A DNA stretch of 64,000 nt from [Archangium] primigenium. GTDB lineage: Bacteria > Myxococcota > Myxococcia > Myxococcales > Myxococcaceae. Positions within the stretch are counted from its first letter, which is position 1. Every line of letters starts with the position of its first letter. The DNA lies in assembly GCF_016904885.1 (NCBI RefSeq), contig NZ_JADWYI010000001.1, positions 7,177,224-7,241,223 on the forward strand. Direction: 5' to 3'. Both the position numbers and the translations under genes were made by a program. A model generated the notes under the pieces. That model was not told where the DNA came from, did not search any database, and saw only the letters and a program-made list of their open reading frames with translations. Shown here one piece after another: positions 48,962 to 64,000 of the stretch.

Positions 48962-50323
48962 TCAGGGCTTCGCGAGCACCGCCGCTTCCAGCCGGGCCAG
49001 CGAGCGCTTGAGCTCGGACATCTCCGTCTTGAGCGCGTCCACCTCCGCGCTCTTGGCCTTCAGCTCCTCCGTGCGGCGCGCCAGGGCCTGGATGGCCACC
49101 ATGTTCACCCCGTCGATGTCGAGCAGGCCGATGCTGCGCTCGTCGGGCCCCAGGCCGAACGCCGCGCGGAAGTCCTGGGCCACCGGCCCCACGTGCCGCA
49201 CCCCCCGCTGCTCCGACTTGTACTGCCAGCTGCGCACGGGCAGCGCGAGCACCCGGGCCAGCACCTGCTCCCCGTCCACGCTCCGGAAGTCCTCCTTGCT
49301 GTCCCGGTCGGACGTGCAGGAGAAGACGCCCGAGCCCGCGGGCAGATCACACCCGGTGCTCAGCGTGGCGCTGGTGCGCAACCGCACTCCACCCGCCGCG
49401 CGCACCATGAACTGGTTGGCCGCGGTGTTCGTCACCGTGCTGGTGGTCGACTGATCTCCCCAGATGAACGCGCCCGAGTGGCCGCCCGAGTCCGCCCGAT
49501 GTCCCAGCGCGAACGAGTAGTTCGCGTTCGCCGAGACGCGATACCCCAAGGCCACCGAGCCCTGTCCACTGGCCACATTGGTGTACCCCAGCGCCACCGA
49601 CGTGAAGCCGCTCGCCACGTTCGAGGCGCCCACGCTCAACGACGCCGTGCCGGAGGCCTTGCTGACCGAGCCCAGGCAGACCGCCACCGTCCCCTCCGCC
49701 TCGCACTGGTCCCCGTAGGCGAACGAGCCCAAAGCGCTGGCCTTCGTCAGGTTGCCACCCGCCCAGGACAAAAAGCCGATGTTGGCCTCGTCCCACTGCG
49801 TCTCGGTGTAGCCCGCGCGGAAGCTCGCCTTGGAGGGGTACCACATGAGCCGGTAGCCCTTGCCCGTCACGGGCAGCGTGCCGTTGCCCAGCTCGCCGGC
49901 CGCCACCAGTCCGCCCGCCGAGTCCACCGAGAACAGCGGAAAGCCCGCCCAGGCGGGCTTGTCCGTGGTGTTGCGCACGCTCAGCAGCGGCACCGGCTCC
50001 TGGGCACTCGCCGTCGCGTCGAGCACCACGTCCGTGTTCGCCGTCAACCGGCCCTGCACCTGCCCCGTCCCCCGCACCGCGAACGATGCGTCCTGAGGCG
50101 TCGTCCCCTTCTGGAGCGCCTGGGCCAACCGGGCATCGTTGCCCTCCACGGACGTGCCCGGACCGTCCCCGTAGACGACCCGCACCGCCTCGCCATCGAG
50201 CGAGAGCCCGGTGCCCACCTGCACGCCGCTCGGGGGCGGGGTGGCGGGGTCACACCCGCACAGACCCACGATCGCGACACCACTCCAGGCCACCACGGCT
50301 CCTCGAATCGACATGCCCTTCAC
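48962..50323 (-). CDS. Tail-fibre-like lipoprotein with YadA-head-like repeats and C-terminal peptidase S74 (endosialidase intramolecular chaperone) domain
   Basis: Lipobox VGLCGCD. Repeats SVALGYTNVASGQGSVALGY...SFALGH. C-terminal CTSDRDSKEDFRSVDGEQVLARVLALPVRSWQYK...GLLDIDGVNMVAIQAL + coiled coil matches the S74 chaperone domain. Confidence 0.75.
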   Translation of the reverse strand: MKGMSIRGAVVAWSGVAIVGLCGCDPATPPPSGVQVGTGLSLDGEAVRVVYGDGPGTSVEGNDARLAQALQKGTTPQDASFAVRGTGQVQGRLTANTDVVLDATASAQEPVPLLSVRNTTDKPAWAGFPLFSVDSAGGLVAAGELGNGTLPVTGKGYRLMWYPSKASFRAGYTETQWDEANIGFLSWAGGNLTKASALGSFAYGDQCEAEGTVAVCLGSVSKASGTASLSVGASNVASGFTSVALGYTNVASGQGSVALGYRVSANANYSFALGHRADSGGHSGAFIWGDQSTTSTVTNTAANQFMVRAAGGVRLRTSATLSTGCDLPAGSGVFSCTSDRDSKEDFRSVDGEQVLARVLALPVRSWQYKSEQRGVRHVGPVAQDFRAAFGLGPDERSIGLLDIDGVNMVAIQALARRTEELKAKSAEVDALKTEMSELKRSLARLEAAVLAKP

Positions 50324-50377
50324 TCCCTGTCAAAAGAGAGGGCCACCCTGGCAAAGGACTCGCGAGGAGTAAATCCG

Positions 50378-51274
50378 ATGAGCCAGAACCCCCCTCTGAC
50401 GCGGGCCCTGCTGTCCCTGGAGGGGCTGTCCGTGGGCGACGCCTTCGGCGAGCGCTTCCTCCAGGCCCCGGCCCTCGCCGAGGAGGACGTGGCCCGGCGC
50501 CAGTTGCCCGCCGCGCCGTGGGCCTACACCGACGACACGGAGATGGCCCTCGCGCTCGTCCAGGTGCTGGAGGAGCACGGACACATCGAGCCCGAGCGGC
50601 TGGCGCGGCTCTTCGGCGCCCGCTACCGCGCCCACCCGCGCCGGGGCTATGGCGCCACCGCGCACGACATCCTCCAGAAAATCCACCTGGGCATGCCCTG
50701 GCGGGACGTCTCCTCCGAGGTGTTCGGCGGCACCGGCTCCATGGGCAACGGCGCCGCCATGCGCGCCGCCCCGCTCGGCGCCTGGTTCGCCGATGACTTC
50801 GAGCGCTGCGTGAGCGAGGCCCGGCTGTCCGCCGAGGTGACGCACTTCCACCCCGAGGGACAGGCGGGCGCCATCGCCGTCGCCGTGGCGGCCGCCTGGG
50901 CCCACCGCTGGCGGGAGGCGCGCATGCCCGCCCCGGAACTCTTCGACGTGGTGCTCGCGTACACCCCGCCCGGGGAGACACGCGCGGGCCTGGAGAAGGC
51001 CCGCCAGTGGCCCCTGGAGGCCACCCCCACCTCCGCGGCGCGCGCCCTGGGCAGCGGCCAGCGCGTGCTCGCCCAGGACACGGTGCCCTTCTGTGTCTGG
51101 AGCGCGGCCCGCCACCTCGGGGAATACCCCGAGGCCCTCTGGAGCACCGTGGCGGGCAAGGGCGACCGGGACACCACCTGCGCCATCGTGGGCGGGCTCG
51201 TCGCGCTGAGCGCGGGCCGCGAGTCCATTCCCCCCGCATGGCTCACCGCTCGCGAGCCCCTCCCCCGCCGATAG
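50378..51274 (+). CDS. ADP-ribosylglycohydrolase family protein (ARH/DraG-like)
   Basis: ATG at 50378 preceded by GAGGAG. 298 aa. ARH-type motifs (SLEGLSVGDAFG, YTDDTEMALAL, GSMGNGAAMRAAPLG, DTVPFCVWSAARH, GDRDTTCAIVGGLV). The track ORF 49193..51274 is an antisense-extended version. Confidence 0.8.
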   Translation: MSQNPPLTRALLSLEGLSVGDAFGERFLQAPALAEEDVARRQLPAAPWAYTDDTEMALALVQVLEEHGHIEPERLARLFGARYRAHPRRGYGATAHDILQKIHLGMPWRDVSSEVFGGTGSMGNGAAMRAAPLGAWFADDFERCVSEARLSAEVTHFHPEGQAGAIAVAVAAAWAHRWREARMPAPELFDVVLAYTPPGETRAGLEKARQWPLEATPTSAARALGSGQRVLAQDTVPFCVWSAARHLGEYPEALWSTVAGKGDRDTTCAIVGGLVALSAGRESIPPAWLTAREPLPRR

Positions 51275-51293
51275 GCACGGCGCGAGCGCGGGC

Positions 51294-54200
51294 TCAGAAA
51301 CGCACGCACGCCTTGGCGTTGATGGAGGCCTCGGACTTCGCGCCGAGATCGATGGGTTCGATCGAGACCTGGCCATCGAAGAAGGACACGAAGGCGGGCC
51401 CAAACCCCACGCCCCCCTCTCCCTTGAAGGAGGGACCACACGGCCCCAGCGAGACCTCGGCGCTCACCTTCATCTTCGACCCCAGCGCCGCGTTGGTGAT
51501 CTCCGCCTTGACCGAGACCCCAGGATCGGCCAAGCCCCCGAACGGCTTGAACTCGAAACCCAAGCCCGCCCCGAAGCCCACCTGGCCGCAGGCGGAGAAC
51601 CCCTGGCCGGGAACCCAGGCCAGCTCGAACCCCCCACCCACTCCGTCGTACCCGGAGAACCCGATGGAGATGAAACCCGTCGGATCGACGCGGTTGACCG
51701 GGTCGCCCATCGCGTATTGATACAGGTTGAGCTGCCCCCCCGCGAAGCGCAGGGGATCTCGCGCCGTCCAGCGGCCCGCCTCCGCGTCGTAATCGCGGAC
51801 CCCGAAACGGGTGAGCCCACTGTGGCTGTCATAGAGGCCGCCCGCGAAGCCGAAGGGCTGGAAGCCTGGATTGGAATCGGACAGCACCTCGCCAAAAGGG
51901 CCATACTCCAGGGACTGCTCGACAACACCCGTGGAGGCATTGACGACCAGACGGATGCTGCCCAGCTGGTCGGTGAGGAGGCGGTAGGTGACACCATCCT
52001 TGAGCATGTAGTCGGGGACATGGCGCTGGCTGGCGTAGACGAAGCGGGAGACGACGGCGCCCGCGCCATCCAGCTCGGCCACCACACGCACGGGCCCGTC
52101 ATAGAGAAAGCCCTGGACCAAGGTGCCGCCGAGACGCTTGCCCACCCTGCGACTGGAGGCGTCCAGCACATAGTCCACTTGGGTGCCGTCGGGCAGCTGC
52201 ACGTGGGTGAGCGCCCCCAGGGCATCGTAGACGTACTGGGTGGGGGCGGCCTCGGACGAGCGCGAGCGCTGTTGCAAGTCGCCGTTGAGGCCAAAGGCGT
52301 AGGTGGCGGCCCCCTGCGTCTGGAGTCGCTCCTGGGCGTCATAGGTGGCGGTGAGGGTAGCGCCCCCCTGGGTGAGCGAGGTGCGGTTGCCATTGAGGTC
52401 GTAGCCGTAGGCGGAATAGGGCGCTCCGTCCAACGTCACGGCGTGGAGACGCCCGGCCAGGTCATAGGCGTACCCCCACACGCGGGTCACGCCTGACGTG
52501 GCTTCCGTCTTGGAGGTGATCCGCCCGGCGACGTCCCGGTCCAGGATGAGGCTGTAGAGGGGGGTGCTTCCCCAGACAGCGGACAGCGCTCGCACCTCGC
52601 CATGGGCATTGTACTGCTGCTCGGTCCTCACCTGGTCCAGGGTGGTCGTGGACAGCAACCCGGTGTCTTGCCCGCGCCCCAGGGAGAGCGCGCCCGCGGA
52701 GATGAGCAGGCCATCCAAATCATACGCATAGGCGAAGGACTGCCCCTGCACCTCGAGCGCCTGGAGGGAGAAGTCGGGGGTATAGGTGTAGCTCACGCCG
52801 CCCTGGACCTCGCCACTCCACGCCACGCTCTTCACCAAGGGCCCGTCATAGGCATACGCCAGGCTAGGACCCGCGCTGTCCGTGAGGGCCGCGAGATGGC
52901 CCTGGGCGTCATACACAAAATCCACCGTGGTCCGGGGCGTGGTGAGCGCGTCCACCCGGCCCGCGCCGTCCCTGGCCAGTTGCACGGAAGCACCGTCTGG
53001 CAGGGAGATGGACGTGAGGGCCCCGTCCCCGTTGTAGGCATACCGCGTGGGAGACAGGGGCGCGGAGGAGAGCGGAGGCGGGGTGTCGCTGTCCACGGTG
53101 TCGGCCGGGGTGTAGCGGAAGTCATGGGCGGAGCGCCCGGGGGGAACCATCCGGGTGAGATTGCCGTGGGCATCGGACGCGAGCCCCACGGTGCGGCCTC
53201 CTGGGAGCCGCTCGGCGGTGAGGCGACCCGCCCCGTTGTAGCTGAAGTCCGTGGTGCGCCCGAGGACGTCCTCCACCGTCGCCAGGTAGCCCGCGGCGTC
53301 GTAAGTATAGGTTTCCGTGCGCTCGCCTTGCGTCACCTTCCAGGGACGTCCCTCGGCGTCATAGCTGTACTCCAGGGGCAGCACGCCCACGACCTCCTGC
53401 CGGACCAGTCTTCCCCGCGCATCCAAGACGGAGGTGGCTAGGCGCCCACTGGGGCTCCGGGTCCTGAGGGTGCGGCTCGCGACCGCGTACGTGGCCGTCT
53501 GCGTGCGTCCATTCTGGCTGCGCGTGTCCACCACGGTCTCGAGCCCCTTCGTGACATCCCCCTGGACGTAGGTGGCCACATTGCCGTGGGTGGAGCTGGA
53601 GGTGAGGCCCCCCGGCAGCGTCACCTGAACGGAGGAGCGCAGGGGCACCTGCATCCCGAAGCGTGCGTCCGGGCCCAGCACTTCCGTGGTGCGGGTGCCA
53701 TCCGGCGCCAGGGTGGTCGTGGTGCTTCCGTCCGCCGTCCGCAGGCTCGATGTGACCGTGCCATCCGGCGCCGTGGTGGTGCGCTGCTGCCCTCCTCCCG
53801 CCAGTTCCCGCACCTGGTAGCGGGTGGTGGTCCCCAAGGCGGTGGAGACGGCGACCGAGTAGCCATCCTCGGCATCCGTTCGCGACAGGTGCTTGTAGCC
53901 CCCCGTGGGCTGGGTGTCCCGCGCCAGCCTTCCCCGAGCGTCATAGGTGTACTGGTGCAAGCCGCCTCGGGCATCCCGCATCGAGGTGAGCAGCCCATGG
54001 GTGGAGTGCTCGAGTTCCACGCGCTCTCCCGCCGGGTTCGTCAGGGAGGAGAGGTAGCCCTGGACATCCCATGTCAGGCGGGTGCGCTGGCCATGAGGGG
54101 CGATGATCGCCAGGGGCTTGCCCGAGGTGTCCCGCTCGATCCGGGTGACCAGTCCGTCTCCATCCGTCACCGAGGTGAGCCGACCGTCCGTGCTGTAGTC

Positions 54201-57200
54201 GAACTGGTAGTGGAGCGCCCCCGTCAGTGCATTCACGGTGCGAAGGTGCCGGCCCCCAGACCCGAAGACGTACACCTCACCGCCGGCCTCGGAGAGGATG
54301 GAGATGCCGCCGACAGAAGAGGCGCTCAATGGCGCGGGGCGCACGGCGCGAACACGGTGGTTGTTCCTATCCGCGATGTACAGAGTGCCGTCTGGCCCGA
54401 CGGCGATGCGGGATGTGCCATTGAAACGAGCCAGGGTGGCTGGCCCTCCATCACCGCCAAAACCGCCCGTGCCCGGTGTCCCCGAGCCCGCCACGGTGGT
54501 GATGAGGCCTTCCGGGTCCACGCGCCGAATGCGTTGGTTGAAGTCATCCGCGATATACAGACTGCCGTCCGGGCCCACGGCGACATCCTGCGGGTACAGG
54601 AAACGAGCCAGGGTGGCCGGCCCCCCATCGCCGTCAAAACCGCCCGTACCCGGTGTCCCCGAGCCCGCCACGGTGGTCACGGTGCCCTCCGGGCCCACAC
54701 GCCGAATGCGTTGGTTGCCCGTATCCGCGATGTACACGCTCCCGTCCGGGCCCACGGCGACCCCCCTTGGGTAATTGAAACGCGCCAGGGCGGCCGGTCC
54801 GCCATCGCCGCCAAAGCCCGACGTCCCCGTGCCCGCCACGGTGGAAATACGGCCCTTCGGGTCCACGCGCCGGATGCGCTGGTTGAAGACATCCGCGATG
54901 TACAGACTGCCGTCGGGTGCCACGGCGACACTCTCCGGAGAGCTGAAGTAGGCCTGGGTGGCCGGCCCCCCATCGCCGCCAAAGGTGCCATGACCCGGTA
55001 TCCCCGAGCCCGCCACGGTGATCATGGTGCCATTCGGGCGCACGCGCCGGATGCGTTGATTTTTCCTATCCGCGATATACAGGCTGCCGTCCGGGCCCAC
55101 GGCGACAGCGGATGGGCTGTCGAGGTACATCGAGTTGCCAAGCTCCCCCTCGTTGCCGTTCAGTCCCGGCAAGCCGACAATACCCGCCACGGTTTTGATG
55201 CTGCCGTCTGGACTCACCCGCCGGACGCGGTGGGAATAGAGTTCCACGAGATAGAAGGCCCCATCTGGCCCGACGGCGACCCCCACGGGTTGGCCCACAT
55301 GGGTCTGCGTTGCTGACAATGAGTCGAGTGAATAGGCGAGGACGCCCGTACCCGCCACGGTGAAGATGTTGCCCGCGGTGAGCGACCCTGAGCTTGTCTC
55401 CCCATGGCCGAAAAGGATCCGGCCGCCGTGGGGATCCCACTGGTGGTGCACGGACAGTCGCCAGCCCCCCAGGTCTTCAGGCGACTCGCTCCATCCACCC
55501 ACCCGAGAGCGCCACGACTGCCAGGAGGTCATCTCCCTCCGCTCTCGGTTGGAAGTGACGGGCTCCGAACCCAGTTGCGCGAAGGAATCGGGGAACTCGG
55601 CGGGCTTCAAATAGACGAGCGGGTAGCGATAACCCGTCCTGCCCGTAACGACCGCCTCACCTTGCACCTTTCGGCCGTAGGCATCCTTCCCATCCCATGT
55701 GAACGAGAGCGTCTGGTGAGGCGCGGCGGGCAGCTCGTAAGTGAAGGCTCTGCCCGCGACATTCACCTCGACGACGATTCCCTCGAGCGAGGGCGGCACC
55801 GAGGCACCACTGACAGGAATGCGCAGGGTGTTCTTGTCTTGCCCCCGCACCCGGTCACTCCGGTAGTGCAGGCGCGAGGACGTCCCCGTGAGCGGCAGTG
55901 ACTCGCCCAATGCCTGGTTCTGACAATCAATGACGCTGCCCTTCTGGCAATCCGGCTTGTTCTCGGGACCCGCCTGGGGCGGCGCGTTCGTCGGAGGCCG
56001 CGCCCCCGGGGGAGGCCCATAGGGCCAGTTGTAATCCCACGGAGTGAAGTGGCTCACGGGGACGCGCCACAGGCTCTTGCCCACCGGGTAGAGGCTGGCC
56101 AACTGCCGCTGCTCGGCCTCGGAGATGCCCAGCGTGGCCAGCACCGCGGCGCTGTCCGGCACGCCGTCTCCCGTGACATCCAGTTGCGCCACACCCTCGA
56201 GGACGCCGTGCACCTGGAGGATGCGGCCGTTGGTCGAGGGCAGCCAGACCCCTCGCCGCCGATCGTAATAGCCCGAGGGCACGGTGCCGCCCACGGGGAA
56301 GCCCAGGAAGTTGTCCACGTAGGAGGCCACGGGCTGGGTGAAGCGCACCTCCTGGCTGTCCAGCGCCAGGGCCTCGTCCAGGGACAGCTCCACCGCGTAG
56401 GTGTACCCGCTGGTGGGAGGCAGATGCGCCGGCATGGAGGCGGGCCCCTCCTCGCCCACCGTGTACTCGGTGGCGCGCACCGTGGCCGAATAGAGGGGCA
56501 CCTCGTCCCCATTGGCCAGGACGGCCAGGGCCTGGGTGCCCGGGGCGAAGAGGAGCGTGGCCTGCCGGGTGCCATCCGCGTCCGTGACCGGGCTGCCTCG
56601 CGCCACCTGGTGGGTGGTGCTCGTGCCGCTGAAGTCCACGGGCGTGCCCTGGGGGTCCAACGGGACGAGCACCACGTCCGGCAGCCAGGCGAAATCTCCC
56701 CAAGGGACGTGGAGCTGGCGCTGAGACGGCAGCAGTCCCTCGGCCTCGTACCTCACGGTGAGGAGGCCTCCGCCATTCACGGCCAGGTCGAAGAGGCCAT
56801 CCTCCCGTGTGAGGGTGTGGCCATACTCCGGATGGTCGAGCACGGAGACGCGCACCTCCTCCAGCGGGTAGCCCTGACGTGAGCGCACCTTGCCGCGCAG
56901 CACCGCCAAGCGATGGGGCACCAGGGTGCCGGGGGCCACGCCCACCTGGATGGGGTCCTCTCCCGAGTAGAGGAAGGACACGGCGTCCACGAAGGGCGTC
57001 ACCGCGAACGGGGACAGCGCGGGCGCGCGCTCCTCGGGGGCGGGCGGAAGGTCGAAGGGCGGCACGTCCACATGCAGGGCGGCGACGGACTCCTGGACCA
57101 GCGAGCCGTAGGCATTTCCCTGGCCATCCCGCCAGGACAGCGCCACCTGGGTCCGCTGGGCCTGCCCCTCGAGCGCCCGCAGGCGCGCGGCGTACGCCGA

Positions 57201-57905
57201 GACGGTTTCACCCCGCTGCCTCACGGGAAGTGGAGGCGGCGTCCAGGTCACCGCCTTGTTCCAGGTGGCGCCCGGCGCCATCGCGTCCAAGGCCACCTCC
57301 ACCCGCGTGGCGTCGGACAACACCACCTGGAGACTTCCCGAGGCGGTCCCCGCCAACCCCCCGTTGGTGACCGTCACGGTATAGGTGATCGCCTCTCCCG
57401 GCAGTGCCACCACGGGGCCTTCCAGGCGCAGGGAGAGACGCGGCAGTACCACGCGACCGTCCGAGGACAACGAGAGGGGCTTGGCCTGAACTCCCGGGGT
57501 CTCGGCGAAATGAACCTCCCCTCGCGATACGAGCGGCTGCCGCTCCAGGTCCTCCAGACGTTGGTGGTAGGAGGCGAGCGACTCGGATTCCCCCCGCGGC
57601 GCCGCGACCGGCGCCGCCAGGTGGAAGGTCACGGTGCGCTCTTCCCCCACCGCCAGGGCACCCACCCGCTCCTCGGCGGAAGGCGGCTGCGTTCCCTGGA
57701 AAGCCTCCCCCACTCGCACGTCGTCCACCGGTACGGAGGACGTGTTGGTCAGTCGTACCAGGACATCGAACCCCTGCCCCGGCAGCACCTCCAAGGGTTG
57801 TGTCTGTGTGGCCACGAGCGAGGCCGGTACCGGGGCGGCGCTGTCACATGCCCCCATCCCCAGCAGCATCCACAGCGCCACCACACGAATGGTCAACGAA
57901 GACAT
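51294..57905 (-). CDS. Teneurin-like RHS/YD-repeat protein: signal peptide, DUF11/CARDB-like repeats, 5 NHL repeats, YD-repeat shell, RHS core, 125-aa Gly-rich C-terminal domain of unknown function
   Basis: Met at 57905 (MSSLTIRVVALWMLLGMGAC). NHL units (LYIADRKNQRIRRV, LYIADVFNQRIRRV, VYIADTGNQRIRRV, LYIADDFNQRIRRV, LYIADRNNHRVRAV). Many YD motifs (YTYDARGRL, YSYDAEGRP, YAYDLAGRL...). RHS core terminus RDPLRFAGGQLNLYQYAMGDPVNRVDPTGF. Then a novel C-terminal domain. Confidence 0.85.
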   Translation of the reverse strand: MSSLTIRVVALWMLLGMGACDSAAPVPASLVATQTQPLEVLPGQGFDVLVRLTNTSSVPVDDVRVGEAFQGTQPPSAEERVGALAVGEERTVTFHLAAPVAAPRGESESLASYHQRLEDLERQPLVSRGEVHFAETPGVQAKPLSLSSDGRVVLPRLSLRLEGPVVALPGEAITYTVTVTNGGLAGTASGSLQVVLSDATRVEVALDAMAPGATWNKAVTWTPPPLPVRQRGETVSAYAARLRALEGQAQRTQVALSWRDGQGNAYGSLVQESVAALHVDVPPFDLPPAPEERAPALSPFAVTPFVDAVSFLYSGEDPIQVGVAPGTLVPHRLAVLRGKVRSRQGYPLEEVRVSVLDHPEYGHTLTREDGLFDLAVNGGGLLTVRYEAEGLLPSQRQLHVPWGDFAWLPDVVLVPLDPQGTPVDFSGTSTTHQVARGSPVTDADGTRQATLLFAPGTQALAVLANGDEVPLYSATVRATEYTVGEEGPASMPAHLPPTSGYTYAVELSLDEALALDSQEVRFTQPVASYVDNFLGFPVGGTVPSGYYDRRRGVWLPSTNGRILQVHGVLEGVAQLDVTGDGVPDSAAVLATLGISEAEQRQLASLYPVGKSLWRVPVSHFTPWDYNWPYGPPPGARPPTNAPPQAGPENKPDCQKGSVIDCQNQALGESLPLTGTSSRLHYRSDRVRGQDKNTLRIPVSGASVPPSLEGIVVEVNVAGRAFTYELPAAPHQTLSFTWDGKDAYGRKVQGEAVVTGRTGYRYPLVYLKPAEFPDSFAQLGSEPVTSNRERREMTSWQSWRSRVGGWSESPEDLGGWRLSVHHQWDPHGGRILFGHGETSSGSLTAGNIFTVAGTGVLAYSLDSLSATQTHVGQPVGVAVGPDGAFYLVELYSHRVRRVSPDGSIKTVAGIVGLPGLNGNEGELGNSMYLDSPSAVAVGPDGSLYIADRKNQRIRRVRPNGTMITVAGSGIPGHGTFGGDGGPATQAYFSSPESVAVAPDGSLYIADVFNQRIRRVDPKGRISTVAGTGTSGFGGDGGPAALARFNYPRGVAVGPDGSVYIADTGNQRIRRVGPEGTVTTVAGSGTPGTGGFDGDGGPATLARFLYPQDVAVGPDGSLYIADDFNQRIRRVDPEGLITTVAGSGTPGTGGFGGDGGPATLARFNGTSRIAVGPDGTLYIADRNNHRVRAVRPAPLSASSVGGISILSEAGGEVYVFGSGGRHLRTVNALTGALHYQFDYSTDGRLTSVTDGDGLVTRIERDTSGKPLAIIAPHGQRTRLTWDVQGYLSSLTNPAGERVELEHSTHGLLTSMRDARGGLHQYTYDARGRLARDTQPTGGYKHLSRTDAEDGYSVAVSTALGTTTRYQVRELAGGGQQRTTTAPDGTVTSSLRTADGSTTTTLAPDGTRTTEVLGPDARFGMQVPLRSSVQVTLPGGLTSSSTHGNVATYVQGDVTKGLETVVDTRSQNGRTQTATYAVASRTLRTRSPSGRLATSVLDARGRLVRQEVVGVLPLEYSYDAEGRPWKVTQGERTETYTYDAAGYLATVEDVLGRTTDFSYNGAGRLTAERLPGGRTVGLASDAHGNLTRMVPPGRSAHDFRYTPADTVDSDTPPPLSSAPLSPTRYAYNGDGALTSISLPDGASVQLARDGAGRVDALTTPRTTVDFVYDAQGHLAALTDSAGPSLAYAYDGPLVKSVAWSGEVQGGVSYTYTPDFSLQALEVQGQSFAYAYDLDGLLISAGALSLGRGQDTGLLSTTTLDQVRTEQQYNAHGEVRALSAVWGSTPLYSLILDRDVAGRITSKTEATSGVTRVWGYAYDLAGRLHAVTLDGAPYSAYGYDLNGNRTSLTQGGATLTATYDAQERLQTQGAATYAFGLNGDLQQRSRSSEAAPTQYVYDALGALTHVQLPDGTQVDYVLDASSRRVGKRLGGTLVQGFLYDGPVRVVAELDGAGAVVSRFVYASQRHVPDYMLKDGVTYRLLTDQLGSIRLVVNASTGVVEQSLEYGPFGEVLSDSNPGFQPFGFAGGLYDSHSGLTRFGVRDYDAEAGRWTARDPLRFAGGQLNLYQYAMGDPVNRVDPTGFISIGFSGYDGVGGGFELAWVPGQGFSACGQVGFGAGLGFEFKPFGGLADPGVSVKAEITNAALGSKMKVSAEVSLGPCGPSFKGEGGVGFGPAFVSFFDGQVSIEPIDLGAKSEASINAKACVRF

Positions 57906-57992
57906 GTGCGCCCCCCAGGCGCACGAGCCTACCGTCGACGGTGACCCCACCGACGGCCTCGTTCGACAGACGTTGGGCCGGAAACAAGGGAA

Positions 57993-59219
57993 TCAGGTGC
58001 CCGGCGCGCGGTACTGGAGCTGCAACGGTGAGCCCCGCGTGTTGTAGGGGTGGTCGGCGCCCACGGCGGACATCCACCCGCACGCGCCCCGGTTCCACAG
58101 GTCCACCACCTGGTTGTTCGCGCTGTAGGTCGCCTCACCGGAGGCGGCGTAACCCGCCGCGGCGAACTGGTTGGGCGCCATGACGAAGGCCGTGCCCCTC
58201 AGGTCGACGTTGCCCAGGCCCGTGTTGCCGAAGTCGCAGTTCATGGCCGAGCCGTAGGTCATGGAGGTGACGGGGTCGCCGTGCGAGAGCACTCCCGTGG
58301 ACGTGGCGAAGGTCTGGTCCGCGGTGTTCACCCGCAGTGTCGCGGGATCGATGCGGACCTTGGTGTAGACGGTCCGCACGTTCGTGTCCCCCGGGCGGTC
58401 GGACCGTGCGGTGTACTGGGAGAAGTTGCTCGACGCGCCCGTGGAGGGCAGCGGCAGGTAGTCCGTGGGGCCACCGGACATGTTGTGGCAGTAGGCCGTC
58501 CAGGGCTGGGCGGCATTGCCCTTCACGTACAGCGTATACGTCCCGTCCTGCGCGGGAGGATGCGTGAGCTTGTACTCCAGGCAGCTCGCCGGAGTCACAT
58601 CCAGCCACGACCCCTGGGTCACGTCCACGAAGTGCATGAGCCTCAAGCTGCCACTGGGGCTGGTCAGCCAGTACGGCTTGCCCGCCGGATCGAACAGGTC
58701 CTTGAACGCGCCGTTGCCCTGCAGGACGAAGAACTGTCCCGGCCCCGGGACGCTCATGTCCTGGGAGAGGACGACCTGGACACTGATGTTGGGATACTCG
58801 TTGTCGTTGTTGTACCCCCGCGCGAACCACGACCACCTGCGGCCGTCATAGTCATAATCCCGCTGCTCCCCATGCTCGCCCCAGGCCGCCACCCGCGTCG
58901 GGAAGACCGTGGGATTCACACCGTAATGACTGACATCCCCGATAAGGCAGCTGTACTTGCCATTGGACGGAAACGAGCCGTAGCGGCAATTGCGGCCTCC
59001 CTGGCTCGTGGTCGTATAGATGGAGGTGACCGCGAGCTTGCCGTCCTGCATGAAGAGCTCGGACTTCGAGCGGAACCCCGCGTTGTCGAACGTCAGGATG
59101 ACCGCCAGCTTCCCATTGGGCCAGTACCACGCCATCCGGGCATCCGCTCGCGCGGAGGCACTGAGCAGACACGTCAGGGAGACTGCCGCGAGGGATGCGA
59201 GCGATGCCAAGCGCTTCAT
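57993..59219 (-). CDS. Secreted protein with Cys-containing C-terminal domain weakly reminiscent of GON/fibrinogen-like domains
   Basis: Signal peptide MKRLASLASLAAVSLTCLLSASARA. 408 aa. Conserved Cys/Trp/Tyr pattern (TYTLYVKGNAAQPWTAYCHNM...MNCDFGNTGLGNVDL...WNRGACGWM). Co-oriented 42 nt upstream of the RHS gene. Confidence 0.6.
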   Translation of the reverse strand: MKRLASLASLAAVSLTCLLSASARADARMAWYWPNGKLAVILTFDNAGFRSKSELFMQDGKLAVTSIYTTTSQGGRNCRYGSFPSNGKYSCLIGDVSHYGVNPTVFPTRVAAWGEHGEQRDYDYDGRRWSWFARGYNNDNEYPNISVQVVLSQDMSVPGPGQFFVLQGNGAFKDLFDPAGKPYWLTSPSGSLRLMHFVDVTQGSWLDVTPASCLEYKLTHPPAQDGTYTLYVKGNAAQPWTAYCHNMSGGPTDYLPLPSTGASSNFSQYTARSDRPGDTNVRTVYTKVRIDPATLRVNTADQTFATSTGVLSHGDPVTSMTYGSAMNCDFGNTGLGNVDLRGTAFVMAPNQFAAAGYAASGEATYSANNQVVDLWNRGACGWMSAVGADHPYNTRGSPLQLQYRAPGT

Positions 59220-59362
59220 GGGACGACCCTTTCCTGTTCGGGGGAGACGACGTCGCGGCGGTACCTTCCCACCCCGGGCGTGTGCCCGGAGGAGAAAATT
59301 CCGTCACCTCCAGAATAGTCAGGAAAGCGCGCAGCGGACAATGGCGTGCGCGGCGCCGGCGG

Positions 59363-60511
59363 TCACAGCAGGCCGGTGCCGTACGCGTAGCTCCGGGTGG
59401 GCCCCTCGCCCTCGGTGGACAGACGCCGCACGCTCAGGTTCATCGAGGGCACGTGCGAGCCGGGCGACGAGGAGAACGTCACCTGGAGCGTGTCCCCCCG
59501 CTTCACGGGAAGCGCGTCGATGGGAAACCACGTCTGGTGCCAGTGCGTGTGGATGGAGAACGGGGACGTGTCGAGCACCTCCCCGGGCGCCAGTTCCAGC
59601 TCGAAGTGGCCCGCCAGACCGTGCACCACCGCGTCCCGGTCCATGCGGAACTCCACGCTCGACTCGAAGTAGAAGGACCCCACCGACTCCTTCGTGCAGT
59701 CGATGTGCCGCAGGAGCACGGGCTCCGTCAGGTAGCTCTCGCGCCGGACCCGGTCGATCCGCATCTTCAGGTTGCCCAGCTCCTGCGCCTTCACCTGGCT
59801 GTAGTCAAAGCCCCCGATGGGCTGCTCCCAGAAGCCCGGACCCTCGTACTGGTAGAGCGCCGAGTCCTCGATGGGCGCCAGGAAGAGCCTGCCCGCCGAG
59901 GGAATGGTCCGGCCGCCGGGCTTGAGCACCCGGTCGCGCACCGCCGAGAACGCCGGGTACATGTTCTCCACGATGAGGAAGTGGCCAATCCACTCCGAGA
60001 CGATGACGTCCGCCTGGATGTCCGCGGAGAAGTCCGCCGCGTCCCCGTGGAACAGCTCGATCCGGTCCGCCAGGCCATTGGCCTCGATGAGCGAGCGCGC
60101 CGTGTGGACGATCGCGGAGCGCTCGATGGCGAAGACGCGCTCGGCGCCACTGGCCGCGGCCGCCATGGCGAGCAGCCCCGTGCCCGTGCCGACGTCCACC
60201 ACCGTGTCCCCGGGCTGGACCACCTTGCGGATGGCGCGCAGGAACGCGTCGTTGCGCGCCCGGTCGCGCAGCATGTTGCGCTGGCTGCCCAGGGTCGCGA
60301 AGTCCAGGAACAGCACCGAGGCCTGTTCGGACACCTCCTGCGAGGCCGACAGAATCCCCGACTCGCGGATGGCCGCGAAGCGCTCGCGCAGCACGGCCTC
60401 GGGCAGTCCGGAGCTCTGGGCCACCGAGCGGATCAACTCCTCGGGCTCCATGGGTGAGGCGAGCGCCAAGAGCAGGGGGATGACGTCTTCCCGGAGCTGG
60501 TAGAAGGGCAC
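59363..60511 (-). CDS. Protein arginine N-methyltransferase (PRMT)-family class I SAM-dependent methyltransferase
   Basis: Motif I VVDVGTGTGLL; post-I FAIERS; double-E loop SEWIGHFLIVENM; THW loop THWHQTWF; N-terminal MLRDRARNDAFLRAI like the PRMT pre-motif. 382 aa. Confidence 0.8.
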   Translation of the reverse strand: MPFYQLREDVIPLLLALASPMEPEELIRSVAQSSGLPEAVLRERFAAIRESGILSASQEVSEQASVLFLDFATLGSQRNMLRDRARNDAFLRAIRKVVQPGDTVVDVGTGTGLLAMAAAASGAERVFAIERSAIVHTARSLIEANGLADRIELFHGDAADFSADIQADVIVSEWIGHFLIVENMYPAFSAVRDRVLKPGGRTIPSAGRLFLAPIEDSALYQYEGPGFWEQPIGGFDYSQVKAQELGNLKMRIDRVRRESYLTEPVLLRHIDCTKESVGSFYFESSVEFRMDRDAVVHGLAGHFELELAPGEVLDTSPFSIHTHWHQTWFPIDALPVKRGDTLQVTFSSSPGSHVPSMNLSVRRLSTEGEGPTRSYAYGTGLL

Positions 60512-60578
60512 GGAGGGGTCTCCTGGTGGGGGTTGCGACGAACCCTACCAGCCGCCCCCGCCACGTCGCGAGACCCCG

Positions 60579-62390
60579 TCAGGGACGAGCGACGAGCTCC
60601 CGGTGCTGGTTGAAGAACCGCTCGAACAGCACGGTCAGTCGCTTGCGGATTTCTTCTCGGGGATGCTGCTCCCATTGGGCGAGGCAGCTCAGCAGCTCGC
60701 GCACCCACCCGGGGTTTTGCATGCGGGCGAACCGGGCCTCGAAGTAGAGCGCGAGGACCAGGGACTCGTTCTTCTCCTGCCCGTCCAGACGGACACCCGG
60801 TTGGGGATAGTCCTCGTGAGGGTCCAGTCCCGTCGGCAGTCCGGCGATCTCGATGACCACGCGCTTGAGCGCCCCCGGCTCGGCGTCGCGCAGCGGGAGC
60901 GTGCCGAGCCGACACGCATGGAAGAGCCAGATGAGGTAGCGCCGCAGCCGGCGCTCGGACAGCATCCGCATGGGACGCTCGGGCTCGAAGACCCGAAAAC
61001 TCTCCAGCACGTTCCAGGCGATGTCTTCCATGTCCTGGGTCCGCGTCCGGCCCCGCGCCCTTCCCGGCCGATGGTCTGTTCGCCAGGCGAGCGCCGCCTC
61101 GACGGCGAGCGCATCCGCGTCGAAGTCCAGCGCCTCGAGCACGAACCCTGTCCGGCCGCTGCCCTGGTAGTCATAGGAGGTGGCGCCCTGCTGGGCGACA
61201 TGGAACGCCTCGTGGACGAGCAACAACCGGACGCACTCCTCCCAGTCCTCGGGCGAGCGCAAGCGCTCCTGCAACTGCCGGTATCCCAGCAACAGGTTGA
61301 CGTGGAACGTCCAGCTGCCGTTGAGGTGCCGGAAGAGCGGGGCATTCTGGCGCGCGGGAACCGTGTCGATGTCGCTCTGGAGCAGGGACGTCTGCTCCAG
61401 CTTCTGGCGCAGGGACTTCTGTTTGGGACGCTTGAGCCAATCACACAGCTGCGCGTGGATGGTACGCACCCGCTTGAGCAGCTCTCCGGCCTCGGCGAAC
61501 TGCTCGGACGAGGGCGAGCCCGGTGTCGACGCGACCCGCCGCGGCGGATGGATGCGGCGGACGGCGAGGTACTTGCGCTGCTCGGGGTTGAAGTGGTGGA
61601 GCACCACGGGATGCTGCGTGTTCGTGTTGATGACCGAGCCCAGCGCGGCGGCCAGGCTGGCGGGTCCATCCATGGCGAGCAGCACGGACTCCACGCCCTC
61701 CAGGTGCTTGTGCAGGGTGTCCATCACGGAGCGGAACTGCTCGGCGGCCTCGGACGCATCCTGGAGGCTCTGGACGGCCTGGGGGCTCGGGCCTCCCCGC
61801 GCGGGCCGCAGGACCACGGTGGCGAGCAGCTCCGAGGGATGGCGGGCCTGGAACTCGGCGAGCGCCACATCCCGGATGGACTGGGTCACCTCGACGATGA
61901 GGGCCACCTTGCCCCGGCCTCCCTGACGTGACGTGGGCAGCCCCTCCAGCGCGAAGAACGGCGTCTGCGCGGAGGACAGCGAGCGGTCATAGCCCAGCAG
62001 CCAGGTGCCATCCGTGATCCGCTGTTGATACACGTACAGCGGCCGGCGCGGCAGGCAGGACGCCAGGTGCAGCATCAGCATCAGGGGGGCGCACCCGAAG
62101 AGGTGGATGTCCAGATCCACCCCCAGCTCCCGCTCCTTCCTCGACAAGGCCTCGGCGAAGCGCTCGTTCTCGTCGAAGGCCGCGGACCAGTCCTGCTCGG
62201 GCCGCGTCCGGATGCGCGTGTGGGGCTCGAACGGATGCAGCACGACCGCCACGACATCCCGGTCACCTTCCACGCCTCGCTGCTTCAGGGCGTCGCGCGC
62301 GGCGTCCTCCGTGATGGGCCTGTCGTGCTCGTAGCGCAGGATGAGGGCTCGGGTCCTCACGTTGATGGGAATGTCGATGTCCATGGGCAT
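60579..62390 (-). CDS. Hypothetical protein: N-terminal tandem Rossmann-like (SAVED/CARF-like) repeats fused to C-terminal DUF4157-type HExxH (zincin-like) domain
   Basis: Start at the Met at 62390 (MPMDIDIPI...); the track start at 62522 would overlap the kinase gene. Two repeats centred on IHLFGCAPLMLMLHLASCL...PLYVYQQ and VLLAMDGPASLAAALGSVIN...PVVLHHF. The C-terminal LLLVHEAFHVAQQG matches the DUF4157 HExxHxxQQ signature. Confidence 0.7.
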   Translation of the reverse strand: MPMDIDIPINVRTRALILRYEHDRPITEDAARDALKQRGVEGDRDVVAVVLHPFEPHTRIRTRPEQDWSAAFDENERFAEALSRKERELGVDLDIHLFGCAPLMLMLHLASCLPRRPLYVYQQRITDGTWLLGYDRSLSSAQTPFFALEGLPTSRQGGRGKVALIVEVTQSIRDVALAEFQARHPSELLATVVLRPARGGPSPQAVQSLQDASEAAEQFRSVMDTLHKHLEGVESVLLAMDGPASLAAALGSVINTNTQHPVVLHHFNPEQRKYLAVRRIHPPRRVASTPGSPSSEQFAEAGELLKRVRTIHAQLCDWLKRPKQKSLRQKLEQTSLLQSDIDTVPARQNAPLFRHLNGSWTFHVNLLLGYRQLQERLRSPEDWEECVRLLLVHEAFHVAQQGATSYDYQGSGRTGFVLEALDFDADALAVEAALAWRTDHRPGRARGRTRTQDMEDIAWNVLESFRVFEPERPMRMLSERRLRRYLIWLFHACRLGTLPLRDAEPGALKRVVIEIAGLPTGLDPHEDYPQPGVRLDGQEKNESLVLALYFEARFARMQNPGWVRELLSCLAQWEQHPREEIRKRLTVLFERFFNQHRELVARP

Positions 62391-62463
62391 CCGGTGGTGT
62401 TTTCCGCCTCCACACGGGAAGACGGAATCGCCGGGCGAATCCATCGCGGGCCGTGCGCTTTTT

Positions 62464-63309
62464 TCAGGTTCCGGGGGTGAGCAGCCCGAGCACTTCCGCC
62501 AGGGCGGGCCGGTCCTCGGCATCCTTCGCCAGCATCCGCGCCATCATCGTCCGTACGGCGTCGGACGCACGACCCTCGAGCAGCGCCAGGGGCGGTTCGC
62601 CTCGGACGTGAAGGATCATCAATCCCTGCTGACCGCTCGACTGGAAAGGCAGTTGGCCCGTCAGCAGCTGAAACCACAGGACGCCCAGGGAGTAGACGTC
62701 CGCCGACGGTCCCACCGTCTTCGCATCGAACCACTGCTCCGGGGGCCGGTAGTCCGCGGTGCCGAGCATCGTGCCACCCGCCGTGGAGATGGGCAGCCCC
62801 TCGGGTCCCGCCGAAGGGAGCCGCTTGGCGAGTCCAAGGTCCGCGAGCCGCACGCTCCAATCACCCGGCACCCGGCGAGCCACGAGCACGTTCTCGGGCT
62901 TCAAGTCCCGATGGATGATCCCCTTCGCATGGAGCAGGGAGAGCACCTCGGCCAGCTGCCCGACGACCTGGACACTCTCCAGGCAAGACAGCCGGCCTCC
63001 CACGCGGGCGAGCGCGCGGGCGAGGTCCTCCGGATGCCACTCCAACACCATGTAGGGTGGGCCCTCGGGGAGCTCCCCCGAGGAGAGACCCTTCACCAGA
63101 TGCGGATGCGCGAGCCCCTGGAGCATCCGGGCCTCGTTGAGGAAGCGCGCCATGACCTCGGGGTCGATGCACCACGTCGGGTGCAGGACCTTGATGGCCA
63201 CGGAGGCGCCATCGGACGCCCTGCGTCCTTCGTAGACGGTGCCGGTCAGCCCCTCCGCGACGAAGCGCAGCAGGCGGTACTCCCCGACCTGTGTTCCCTT
63301 CGACAGCAT
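62464..63309 (-). CDS. Hanks-type Ser/Thr protein kinase (kinase domain only, 281 aa)
   Basis: Met at 63309 (MLSKGTQVGEYRLLRFVAEGLTGTVYEG). VAIK Lys; catalytic loop IIHRDLKPENVLV; ADLGLAK; activation segment ...GTADYRPPE. Confidence 0.85.
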   Translation of the reverse strand: MLSKGTQVGEYRLLRFVAEGLTGTVYEGRRASDGASVAIKVLHPTWCIDPEVMARFLNEARMLQGLAHPHLVKGLSSGELPEGPPYMVLEWHPEDLARALARVGGRLSCLESVQVVGQLAEVLSLLHAKGIIHRDLKPENVLVARRVPGDWSVRLADLGLAKRLPSAGPEGLPISTAGGTMLGTADYRPPEQWFDAKTVGPSADVYSLGVLWFQLLTGQLPFQSSGQQGLMILHVRGEPPLALLEGRASDAVRTMMARMLAKDAEDRPALAEVLGLLTPGT

Positions 63310-63320
63310 TCCAAGTGCCT

Positions 63321-64000
63321 CTACTTCGAGCCGGTGGGCTTGAGCATGTACAGCGCCTGGATGCAAGACAGCAGGCTCCGCAATTCCTCGGCGCACTGGG
63401 GATGGTCCGCCACGAAAGCCTCCACGTCCACCTGCTCACCCTGCTGCTGTTTGCGCATGTAGAGGAGCAGGGCCGCATCCGCGGCGTTCTGGATGATGGC
63501 GTCCTGGCTGATTCCCGGCGACTGCTTCTCGGGGTTGCCAGACCTGCGATCCCGGATGGCGCGCACAGCTCGCTGGCGGAGGGAGCTCACCGCATCCTGA
63601 CTCTTGCCCATGTGTTGCGCGATCTCCGCATCGGACAGATCGTCCAGATAATAGAGAAAGACGACCTTCCGTTGCTCCTTGGGCAGGCCGTAGACATACC
63701 CCAGCAGTTGTCGACACTCCTCCTGCTGGGATGCGAACTGACTCGGGCTTCGCTGGACGGCGGCCAGTTGATGGGAATCGAGTTCCTCCAGGGACTCCGT
63801 GGCATCCTCGCTTCGCTTCTGGCTGTGGGCCTCGCGCGAGATATCCATGAGGCGTCTCCGCTGAATCTTCTTGAGCCAGGCGAACCACGACTCCTCGGTC
63901 TCTCCGTCGAAGGAGGGGAAGCGCTGGAAGGCACGCAGCGCTGTTTCCTGAACGAGATCCGATTTGCGGGTACCAGCCGGAGGGGACCGTCCCATCTGGT
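63321..64000 (-). CDS. ECF-type sigma factor with C-terminal extension (partial; N-terminus beyond window end)
   Basis: Region 2 DLVQETALRAFQRFPSFDG...WFAWLKKIQRRR and region 4 LSDAEIAQHMGKSQDAVSSLRQRA, followed by a ~75-aa extension. The conserved region 1.2/2.1 lead-in is missing, so the true start lies past 64000. Confidence 0.75.
   Translation of the reverse strand, partial: QMGRSPPAGTRKSDLVQETALRAFQRFPSFDGETEESWFAWLKKIQRRRLMDISREAHSQKRSEDATESLEELDSHQLAAVQRSPSQFASQQEECRQLLGYVYGLPKEQRKVVFLYYLDDLSDAEIAQHMGKSQDAVSSLRQRAVRAIRDRRSGNPEKQSPGISQDAIIQNAADAALLLYMRKQQQGEQVDVEAFVADHPQCAEELRSLLSCIQALYMLKPTGSK

Follow-up and report, generated by a model that had tools for sequence, protein, structure and literature searches.

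Does a bacterium encode a true member of the family of protein arginine methyltransferases (PRMTs), usually taught as a eukaryotic invention, and does this protein there serve a signalling operon? The question is raised by a gene of [Archangium] primigenium located at positions 59363..60511, on the minus strand, of a 64,000-nucleotide stretch of contig NZ_JADWYI010000001.1 (positions 7,177,224 to 7,241,223), which we call the window and whose G+C content is about 69%. The gene, delimited by its open reading frame (ORF) and by homology, runs from a GTG start to a TGA stop (59363-59365) and encodes 382 residues; a ribosome-binding site AGGAG, read from the sequence, lies 8 nt upstream of the start codon (60520..60524), and the position of the GTG is identical in the orthologues. 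All the features of this gene given below are likewise on the minus strand. The initial annotation had presented the product as a bona fide PRMT homologue in a bacterial signalling operon. Our analysis retains the first half of this proposition and abandons the second: the protein is a genuine PRMT-family member with a full type I core, and its gene came to stand behind those of an extracytoplasmic function (ECF) sigma factor, a Ser/Thr kinase and a SAVED-M48 protein by chance, in a variable region, without forming a functional operon with them.

The family membership is carried by the sequence and by the fold. In a phmmer search against all PDB sequences, the protein matched rat PRMT3 (4.6e-38), human PRMT8 (8.5e-38) and yeast Hmt1 (9e-37), and further PRMT1, PRMT6, CARM1, PRMT2 and PRMT7, the values for PRMT3, PRMT8, PRMT1, PRMT6, CARM1 and PRMT2 spanning 1e-38 to 1e-29; the match covers residues 63-352, that is the entire catalytic core including the β-barrel. 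The best Pfam match is PRMT_C (PF22528; 1.7e-16, 61 bits for a cutoff of 27, residues 207-352), and PrmA (7.7e-13) and Methyltransf_25 also match over residues 91-204; the NCBIfam search returned no model above its cutoff for this protein. The AlphaFold2 model, built from a 98-sequence alignment, has a mean predicted local distance difference test (pLDDT) score of 93.6, and its 50 best Foldseek matches in the PDB are all eukaryotic PRMTs, with target-normalised template-modelling (TM) scores of 0.8-0.9. Among the matches to solved structures, whether in the phmmer search or in the Foldseek top 50, there is no bacterial full-length PRMT. The claim of a bona fide homologue is thus borne out by phmmer, by the PRMT_C profile and by Foldseek, and the profile searches that the initial annotation had named as able to assign the protein to another class I methyltransferase family leave the PRMT placement standing.

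The hallmarks that the same annotation had listed, namely motif I, the acidic post-I residue, the double-E loop and the THW loop, were all found, and each falls in the corresponding columns of the alignments to PRMT3 and PRMT8. The N-terminal helices of the PRMT core and the Rossmann-fold domain that would bind S-adenosylmethionine (SAM) occupy residues 61-205 (59897..60331), as defined by the PRMT3/8 alignment and the Pfam PrmA and Methyltransf_25 matches. This part of the protein contains motif I VVDVGTGTG (residues 104-112; 60176..60202), the post-I strand VFAIERS with the acidic residue E130 (60116..60136), which aligns to VIAVDQS of PRMT3 and VFGIECS of PRMT8, and the double-E loop SEWIGHFLIVENM (residues 172-184, including E173, E182 and M184; 59960..59998), which aligns to SEWMGYFLLFESM of PRMT3. 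The C-terminal β-barrel (residues 206-382; 59366..59896), identified by PF22528 and made of 10 strands in the model, carries the THW loop T322-H323-W324 (59540..59548), aligned to THWKQT of PRMT3/8. It also carries a predicted dimerisation arm at about residues 215-246 (59774..59869), with model helices 217-223, 225-229 and 238-245, which contains FWEQPIGGFDY and aligns to '...FWDDVYGFNMS...' of PRMT3/8, the FW...YGF motif being conserved. Conservation was followed in an alignment of 21 sequences (A1), in a larger set of 98 bacterial relatives and in a narrower alignment (A3). D83, R86, G108, G110, G112, E173, E182 and W324 are invariant in A1, and W324 in A3 as well; the 98 relatives retain D83, R86 and the three glycines of motif I without exception, and 90% or more of them have E173 and W324.

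The public databases do not agree on the name of this protein. In NCBI, the identical protein WP_204492567.1 (Archangium primigenium, Melittangium boletus) is called '50S ribosomal protein L11 methyltransferase', that is PrmA, and UniRef names the Cystobacter ferrugineus orthologue protein arginine N-methyltransferase. What the protein has in common with PrmA is the class I Rossmann core detected by the Pfam PrmA profile over residues 91-204, whereas PrmA lacks the PRMT β-barrel, the double-E loop and the THW loop. The PrmA equivalog of NCBIfam, TIGR00406, scores 44 bits for a cutoff of 183 and over residues 92-190 only, and the genuine PrmA loci recovered in our genome scan match residues ~91-206 of the query only, without the β-barrel. 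The identity with PrmA was consequently rejected and the NCBI name is a mis-annotation, since the equivalog score is far below its cutoff and the PRMT β-barrel is present; the wrong L11 methyltransferase name will spread to related entries. The NCBI name and the Pfam PrmA match are also the two points in favour of a reading in which the protein would be either PrmA as annotated or a pseudo-enzyme, a dead scaffold comparable to the trypanosome PRMT1 'prozyme'. We regard this reading as very improbable: all the catalytic and SAM-binding residues are intact, true PrmA has no β-barrel, the PrmA equivalog score lies far under its cutoff, and the gene is constrained. Indeed, the ratio of nonsynonymous to synonymous substitution rates (dN/dS) is 0.20 relative to the 84-85% identical orthologues of C. 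ferrugineus (L001) and of a metagenome contig (L006), and 0.06 relative to the 99% identical PRMT of a second strain (L005). A dN/dS of about 0.2 points to a functional gene under purifying selection.

Where does such a gene come from? The initial annotation had left the choice between a horizontal transfer from eukaryotes and an ancient bacterial lineage, and the evidence leans towards a bacterial lineage, on the basis of bit scores, of the G+C content at third codon positions (GC3) and of a rough neighbour-joining (NJ) tree. A total of 358 database proteins are related to the window protein at E<=1e-10. Among the matches listed, full-length bacterial homologues occur in at least 10 phyla and are sparse per genome, their hosts including Verrucomicrobiota, Planctomycetota, Rhodobacterales, Myxococcota, Desulfobacterota, Acidobacteriota, Gemmatimonadota, the candidate phyla radiation (CPR) and others; the genome scan behind this listing used A3, and the listing stands without the source genome and the C. 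ferrugineus orthologue. Outside the orthologue group, the nearest relatives are bacterial, many of them 37-54% identical to the window protein at 215-410 bits, while the best eukaryotic PRMT scores 134 bits. In the NJ tree, the window protein groups with a bacterial subfamily bearing an additional N-terminal domain, and PRMT3 and PRMT8 are found elsewhere within the bacterial spread. The branches of this tree are without support values, and eukaryotes are represented in it by PRMT3 and PRMT8 alone, both taken from the phmmer alignments, which tempers the bacterial reading.

A recent gain from a eukaryote, for instance from prey or from soil protists, would account for the ~31% identity with PRMT3/8 across the core, and myxobacteria are, as is generally known, predators that possess other eukaryote-like genes. 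Such an import is nevertheless hardly credible, because the bacterial relatives are far closer than any eukaryotic PRMT, in the rough tree the window protein and PRMT3/8 do not form a pair, and the GC3 is that of the host. The GC3 of the gene is 0.96, equal to that of the surrounding native genes and within the range of the bulk of the window genes (0.94-0.97), and the N-terminal domain is common to bacterial relatives only. The PRMT gene would then belong to a bacterial lineage. Bacterial PRMT homologues are indeed known from comparative genomics, according to a review (PMC3417536, citing Aravind et al. 2011), and eukaryotic PRMTs have been proposed to arise from a bacterial radiation (PMC3417536), a view with which the placement of the window protein agrees. 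The family had been described as rare and uncharacterised in bacteria. Rarity stands only in part: the homologues are sparse per genome, yet distributed over at least 10 phyla among the matches listed and already described by comparative genomics. The second adjective holds as far as our searches reach: the literature searched for a characterised bacterial PRMT gave only the Aravind review and mentions of SznE, an enzyme considered below, and in it we found no bacterial member tested on proteins or shown to methylate them.

Two further observations concern the wider family. A distant PRMT-like subgroup (L023, L024, L026, L027 and L031), 31-33% identical to the window protein and found in Gemmatimonadales, Acidiferrales, Aggregatilineales, Solibacteraceae and Polyangiaceae, has recurrent neighbours encoding proteins of ~300, ~640 and ~110-130 residues, unlike the subfamily of the window protein; this recurrence suggests a real operon in that subgroup. 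Furthermore, in three loci from different phyla (L002, 3713-4495; L012, 2200-2979; L014, 4007-4786), a second class I methyltransferase of ~260 residues is encoded 1-4 kb from the PRMT-like gene.

Is the PRMT, then, part of a signalling operon? The geometry given in the initial annotation is correct: upstream of the PRMT gene and in the same orientation, on the minus strand, lie an ECF sigma factor (63321 to the window end, where it is cut), a Ser/Thr kinase (62464-63309) and a protein combining a SAVED domain with the HExxH motif HEAFH (60579-62390), which PADLOC recognises as the 'SAVED_peptidaseM48' effector (2.5e-160). The hypothesis that the PRMT is a working part of this set, co-transcribed with it and methylating a component or a target of the pathway, perhaps after recruitment following the loss of a SMODS gene, finds several arguments in the window. 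The genes are co-oriented, the gap between the SAVED gene and the PRMT gene is only 67 nt (60512-60578), two strains, those of the window and of L005, have this gene order in common, a SMODS gene that accompanies the module elsewhere is lacking in this copy, and the region resembles a defence or variable island. The scan of 59100-60800 for promoters and terminators found nothing either way, and a 67-nt gap without a terminator- or promoter-like site makes a co-transcription with the SAVED gene possible, which is a point against treating the PRMT gene as independent.

The comparison of the loci speaks against the operon. The adjacency of the PRMT and the module is kept in the window and in L005 only, and these two cases count as one evolutionary event, since the strains are ~95% identical in DNA. 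In blastn, C. ferrugineus (L001) shares with the window the interval 59363-60513 only, and the metagenome contig (L006) only 59363-60534, its homology reaching just 23 nt upstream of the PRMT start. The neighbours of these 84-85% identical orthologues are unrelated to those of the window, among them a GntR-aminotransferase gene and, in L006, a 4'-phosphopantetheinyl transferase gene; the module is absent from the orthologous loci L001, L006 and L007, and the neighbours of more distant subfamily members are likewise unrelated. The neighbourhoods of PRMT relatives were inspected at eight places, and the ORFs within 5 kb were clustered over 31 loci: shadow frames of the PRMT itself aside, no recurrent neighbour family of the window's subfamily emerged. 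On the other hand, the SAVED-M48 orthologues are 50-62% identical across Myxococcus, Corallococcus, Stigmatella, Hyalangium and Archangium, and the ECF sigma/kinase/SAVED-M48 module is conserved without a PRMT in all four other myxobacterial loci examined (L088, L089, L092 and L093), with different genes downstream: in two of them a second SAVED protein, and in the others a type III-B Cmr cassette or MoxR and VWA genes. Base composition separates the two units in the same way, the GC3 being 0.96 for the PRMT and 0.82-0.88 for the module genes.

The other flank is no more stable. The 8.1 kb of window 51271-59347 are absent from L005, which jumps from 59348 to 51270. Two candidate connections were tried and rejected. 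Membership of MADS, raised by the PADLOC 'mad2' profile (5e-18), fails because the match is confined to the generic Rossmann core (residues 75-204), and this also counts against the operon hypothesis. An ADP-ribosyl(arginine)glycohydrolase gene, a convergent neighbour in L005, is absent near the L001 and L006 orthologues and was dismissed as a partner. Because the flanks of the orthologues are unrelated, the module exists elsewhere without the PRMT and the downstream flank is unstable, we consider the PRMT an independent gene in a variable region. The claim that it belongs to a signalling operon is therefore given up, and the hypothesis of a functional role in the ECF sigma/kinase/SAVED-M48 operon is in our judgement improbable.

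The module itself deserves a description. In its full form it comprises a large Ser/Thr kinase-STAND(nSTAND1)-TPR protein, the ECF sigma factor, the small Ser/Thr kinase and the SAVED-M48-like peptidase, together with a SMODS nucleotidyltransferase, for which three of the four module loci examined have an annotation. In the window, SMODS was not found by tblastn, and only ~73 bp separate the kinase stop from the SAVED start. The window module (60579-64000) is a decayed copy of a myxobacterial sensor/effector pair, resembling the cyclic-oligonucleotide-based anti-phage signalling system (CBASS) and wired to a sigma factor and kinases, and its SAVED effector looks orphaned, as this copy has no SMODS gene. 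Could the PRMT have been captured by this module after the SMODS loss, and be co-transcribed with the SAVED-M48 gene under the control of the ECF sigma factor and of the Ser/Thr kinases? We hold this to be quite improbable; if it were true, arginine methylation would be wired into a stress or anti-phage response, for example by modification of the protease, of its target or of phage proteins. As a separate observation on these modules, in Archangium violaceum CP137851 (L089, 8818-15821) a type III-B CRISPR Cmr cassette (RAMP, Cas10/Cmr2, Cmr3, Cmr5, Cas6) follows the SMODS/SAVED-M48 module directly and on the same strand, so that two cyclic-oligonucleotide signalling systems stand side by side.

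The independent PRMT gene being thus the object of interest, what would its product do? Our analysis establishes the family membership, the intact catalytic motifs, the fold, the purifying selection and the lack of a conserved context; we infer the catalysis, the product type, the dimerisation and a protein substrate in preference to a small molecule. We give a modest preference to a SAM-dependent guanidino-N-methyltransferase that works as a dimer and modifies, in trans, arginines of proteins or peptides. The Rossmann domain would bind SAM via motif I, E130 and R86; E173 and E182 of the double-E loop and the THW-loop residues H323 and W324 would together hold and deprotonate the guanidinium of the substrate, and the methyl group would then pass to a terminal (omega) nitrogen. 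The enzyme would probably form a head-to-tail homodimer through the conserved arm. M80, D83 and R86 align to M48, D51 and R54 of PRMT1, and M184 to M155; M80 and M184 thus occupy Met positions of PRMT3/8, and the PRMT1 residues M48 and M155 are linked, in established PRMT enzymology, to type I products, that is to asymmetric dimethylation. This correspondence suggests mono- and asymmetric dimethylation, with monomethylarginine (MMA) and asymmetric dimethylarginine (ADMA) as the likely type I products. The most likely substrate would be arginines in basic proteins or peptides. It must be encoded elsewhere, given that the gene is equipped with a ribosome-binding site, lacks any conserved neighbour and follows the host in its codon usage. 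Protein or peptide arginines are favoured by the complete PRMT architecture including the arm, by the acidic surface and by the lack of biosynthetic genes nearby; furthermore, an acidic protein (isoelectric point, pI, 5.2) would suit basic substrates and is hard to reconcile with DNA binding. The proposition that the enzyme is a genuine PRMT in its activity, with arginines of bacterial proteins as its targets, is nearly evenly poised, on the doubtful side.

Several points weigh against this activity. The YFxxY motif (Y35/F36/Y39 in the established PRMT1 numbering), which in PRMT1 closes over SAM together with the helix-X residues M48 and R54, is degenerate (LFLDF), the Phe being kept and both Tyr replaced, and an Ala stands at the position aligned to E129 of PRMT1, an adenine contact. 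Moreover, the only bacterial arginine guanidino-N-methyltransferases with biochemistry that we found, SznE/StzE, act on free L-arginine (PMC11705231), and the bacterial sister groups of the PRMTs have been placed in secondary-metabolite operons (PMC3417536).

These last two points open the way to the main rival reading, in which the enzyme would methylate a small molecule, either free L-arginine or an intermediate of a secondary metabolite, this intermediate being a peptide of non-ribosomal or ribosomal origin. SznE/StzE is a SAM-dependent arginine guanidino methyltransferase that forms N-omega-methyl-L-arginine in streptozotocin biosynthesis (PMC11705231), and a 31%-identical homologue marks the saskemycin cluster (PMC12637814). 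PRMT relatives of bacteria have been described in antibiotic-like operons or as fused to non-ribosomal peptide synthetase (NRPS) enzymes (PMC3417536). In our own loci, some relatives adjoin a 4'-phosphopantetheinyl transferase (L006) or a TauD dioxygenase (L004), and those of L090 and L091 lie near M20 peptidase and Opp peptide transporter genes. Myxobacteria are generally known as prolific producers of secondary metabolites. Against all this, no biosynthetic genes lie beside the PRMT in the window, in L005 or in C. ferrugineus, the 31 loci show no recurrent neighbour, and the N-terminal domain has neither the strands nor the profile match of a leader-peptide binder, as detailed below. We therefore judge a small-molecule substrate unlikely, though worth taking seriously, and keep the protein or peptide arginine as the preferred target. 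The relative of the L090 and L091 loci, P0057 (402 residues, with a longer N-terminal domain; L090 8001-9209, L091 1986-3194), is encoded in two assemblies between M20 peptidase/amidohydrolase genes and an Opp-type oligopeptide ABC transporter, a location that may point, for this branch, to a role connected with peptides or amino acids.

The N-terminal domain (residues 1-60; 60332..60511) distinguishes the subfamily of the window protein. It is an acidic, winged-helix-like three-helix domain (model helices 8-16, 23-34 and 38-51), carried by ~30 of the 120 bacterial homologues listed, all in one bacterial subfamily, and within the searches made it is previously undescribed. Sequence profiles of the domain gave weak helix-turn-helix (HTH) matches only. 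The idea of a PqqD-like recognition element for ribosomally made peptides (RRE) came from a sequence pattern seen by eye and received no support from the sequence profiles: the domain profile gave no PqqD match even at E<=10, and the model predicts no β-strands, as opposed to the strands by which RREs bind leader peptides. In a fold search with the domain, RREs and ordinary HTH regulators could not be told apart. DNA binding is unlikely because the domain is acidic (pI 4.5), and the domain would most likely recruit a substrate or a partner.

Some features of the surrounding DNA may be noted for their own sake. The segment 51271-59347, missing from L005, encodes a secreted protein of 2218 residues whose architecture is that of a complete teneurin-like protein (CARDB, TTR, FN-plug, NHL and YD-shell/RHS domains) with a C-terminal extension and, at 57993-59219, a secreted protein of 408 residues in which a GON domain is joined by a GGGWT motif of fibrinogen-like type. 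The segment probably represents a polymorphic-toxin cassette, and its GC3 of 0.84-0.89 is lower than the genome norm. The individual lower values are 0.84 for the teneurin-like gene, 0.89 for the GON-domain gene, 0.88 for the SAVED gene and 0.82 for the kinase. Two plus-strand ORFs of 420 and 422 residues (59195-60457 and 58050-59318) run antisense to the PRMT and GON genes, respectively; both are absent from the set of ORFs with a GC3 of at least 0.80 and, once translated, show an abundance of Arg, Gly, Val and His, and for these reasons we consider them 'shadow' artefacts of high G+C content that could mislead gene callers. Beyond the segment, an ADP-ribosylglycohydrolase domain (~50417-51274, plus strand; Pfam 1.1e-52) lies in a long ORF spanning 49193-51274 that probably begins, in reality, at a much later position; this is the gene that converges on the PRMT gene in L005. 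The minus-strand gene 48962-50323 encodes a 453-residue protein that combines YadA-head repeats with an intramolecular chaperone domain (Peptidase_S74), an architecture encountered in phage tail-spike and tail-fibre proteins and in some surface fibres.

What does this gene bring to the understanding of arginine methylation? The family is already known, and the window gene is neither a new kind of system nor an operon; its value is moderate for this reason and because the link with a signalling operon fails. It nevertheless offers an intact, selectively maintained single-gene entry point, from a cultivable lineage (Archangium, Cystobacter, Melittangium), to two questions: do bacteria methylate arginines of proteins in the manner of PRMTs, and was the substrate of the ancestral enzyme a protein, a peptide or free arginine? 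Should the enzyme prove to be a true protein methyltransferase, it would give, for the first time, a counterpart of eukaryotic PRMT signalling that can be studied biochemically in a bacterium.

In comparison with the known systems, the closest likeness is with the eukaryotic type I PRMTs (PRMT1, PRMT3, PRMT8 and Hmt1, as well as PRMT6, CARM1 and PRMT2), with which the window protein has the entire catalytic core in common, including the N-terminal helices, the barrel and the arm, at 28-31% identity over ~290 residues and TM scores of 0.8-0.9; the methionines linked to dimethylation are kept, and both are acidic overall. It differs from them in being bacterial, with a codon usage typical of its host, in its LFLDF version of YFxxY and in the Ala at the E129 position. 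Its N-terminal appendage is the acidic winged-helix-like domain instead of the zinc finger of PRMT3, the SH3 domain of PRMT2, the PH-like domain of CARM1 or the myristoylated tail of PRMT8, and the window enzyme would have no histones or RGG-type heterogeneous nuclear ribonucleoproteins (hnRNPs) as substrates. Compared by description only, SznE/StzE resembles it in being a bacterial SAM-dependent enzyme methylating an omega nitrogen of arginine, whereas SznE/StzE acts on free L-arginine and is encoded in a biosynthetic cluster beside SznF, neither of which is seen at the window gene. Finally, the window protein falls in the same broad bacterial radiation as the PRMT-like 'peptide methylases' described by Aravind, which have been reported in secondary-metabolite operons or NRPS fusions (PMC3417536), whereas the window gene stands alone and its product carries the additional N-terminal domain.

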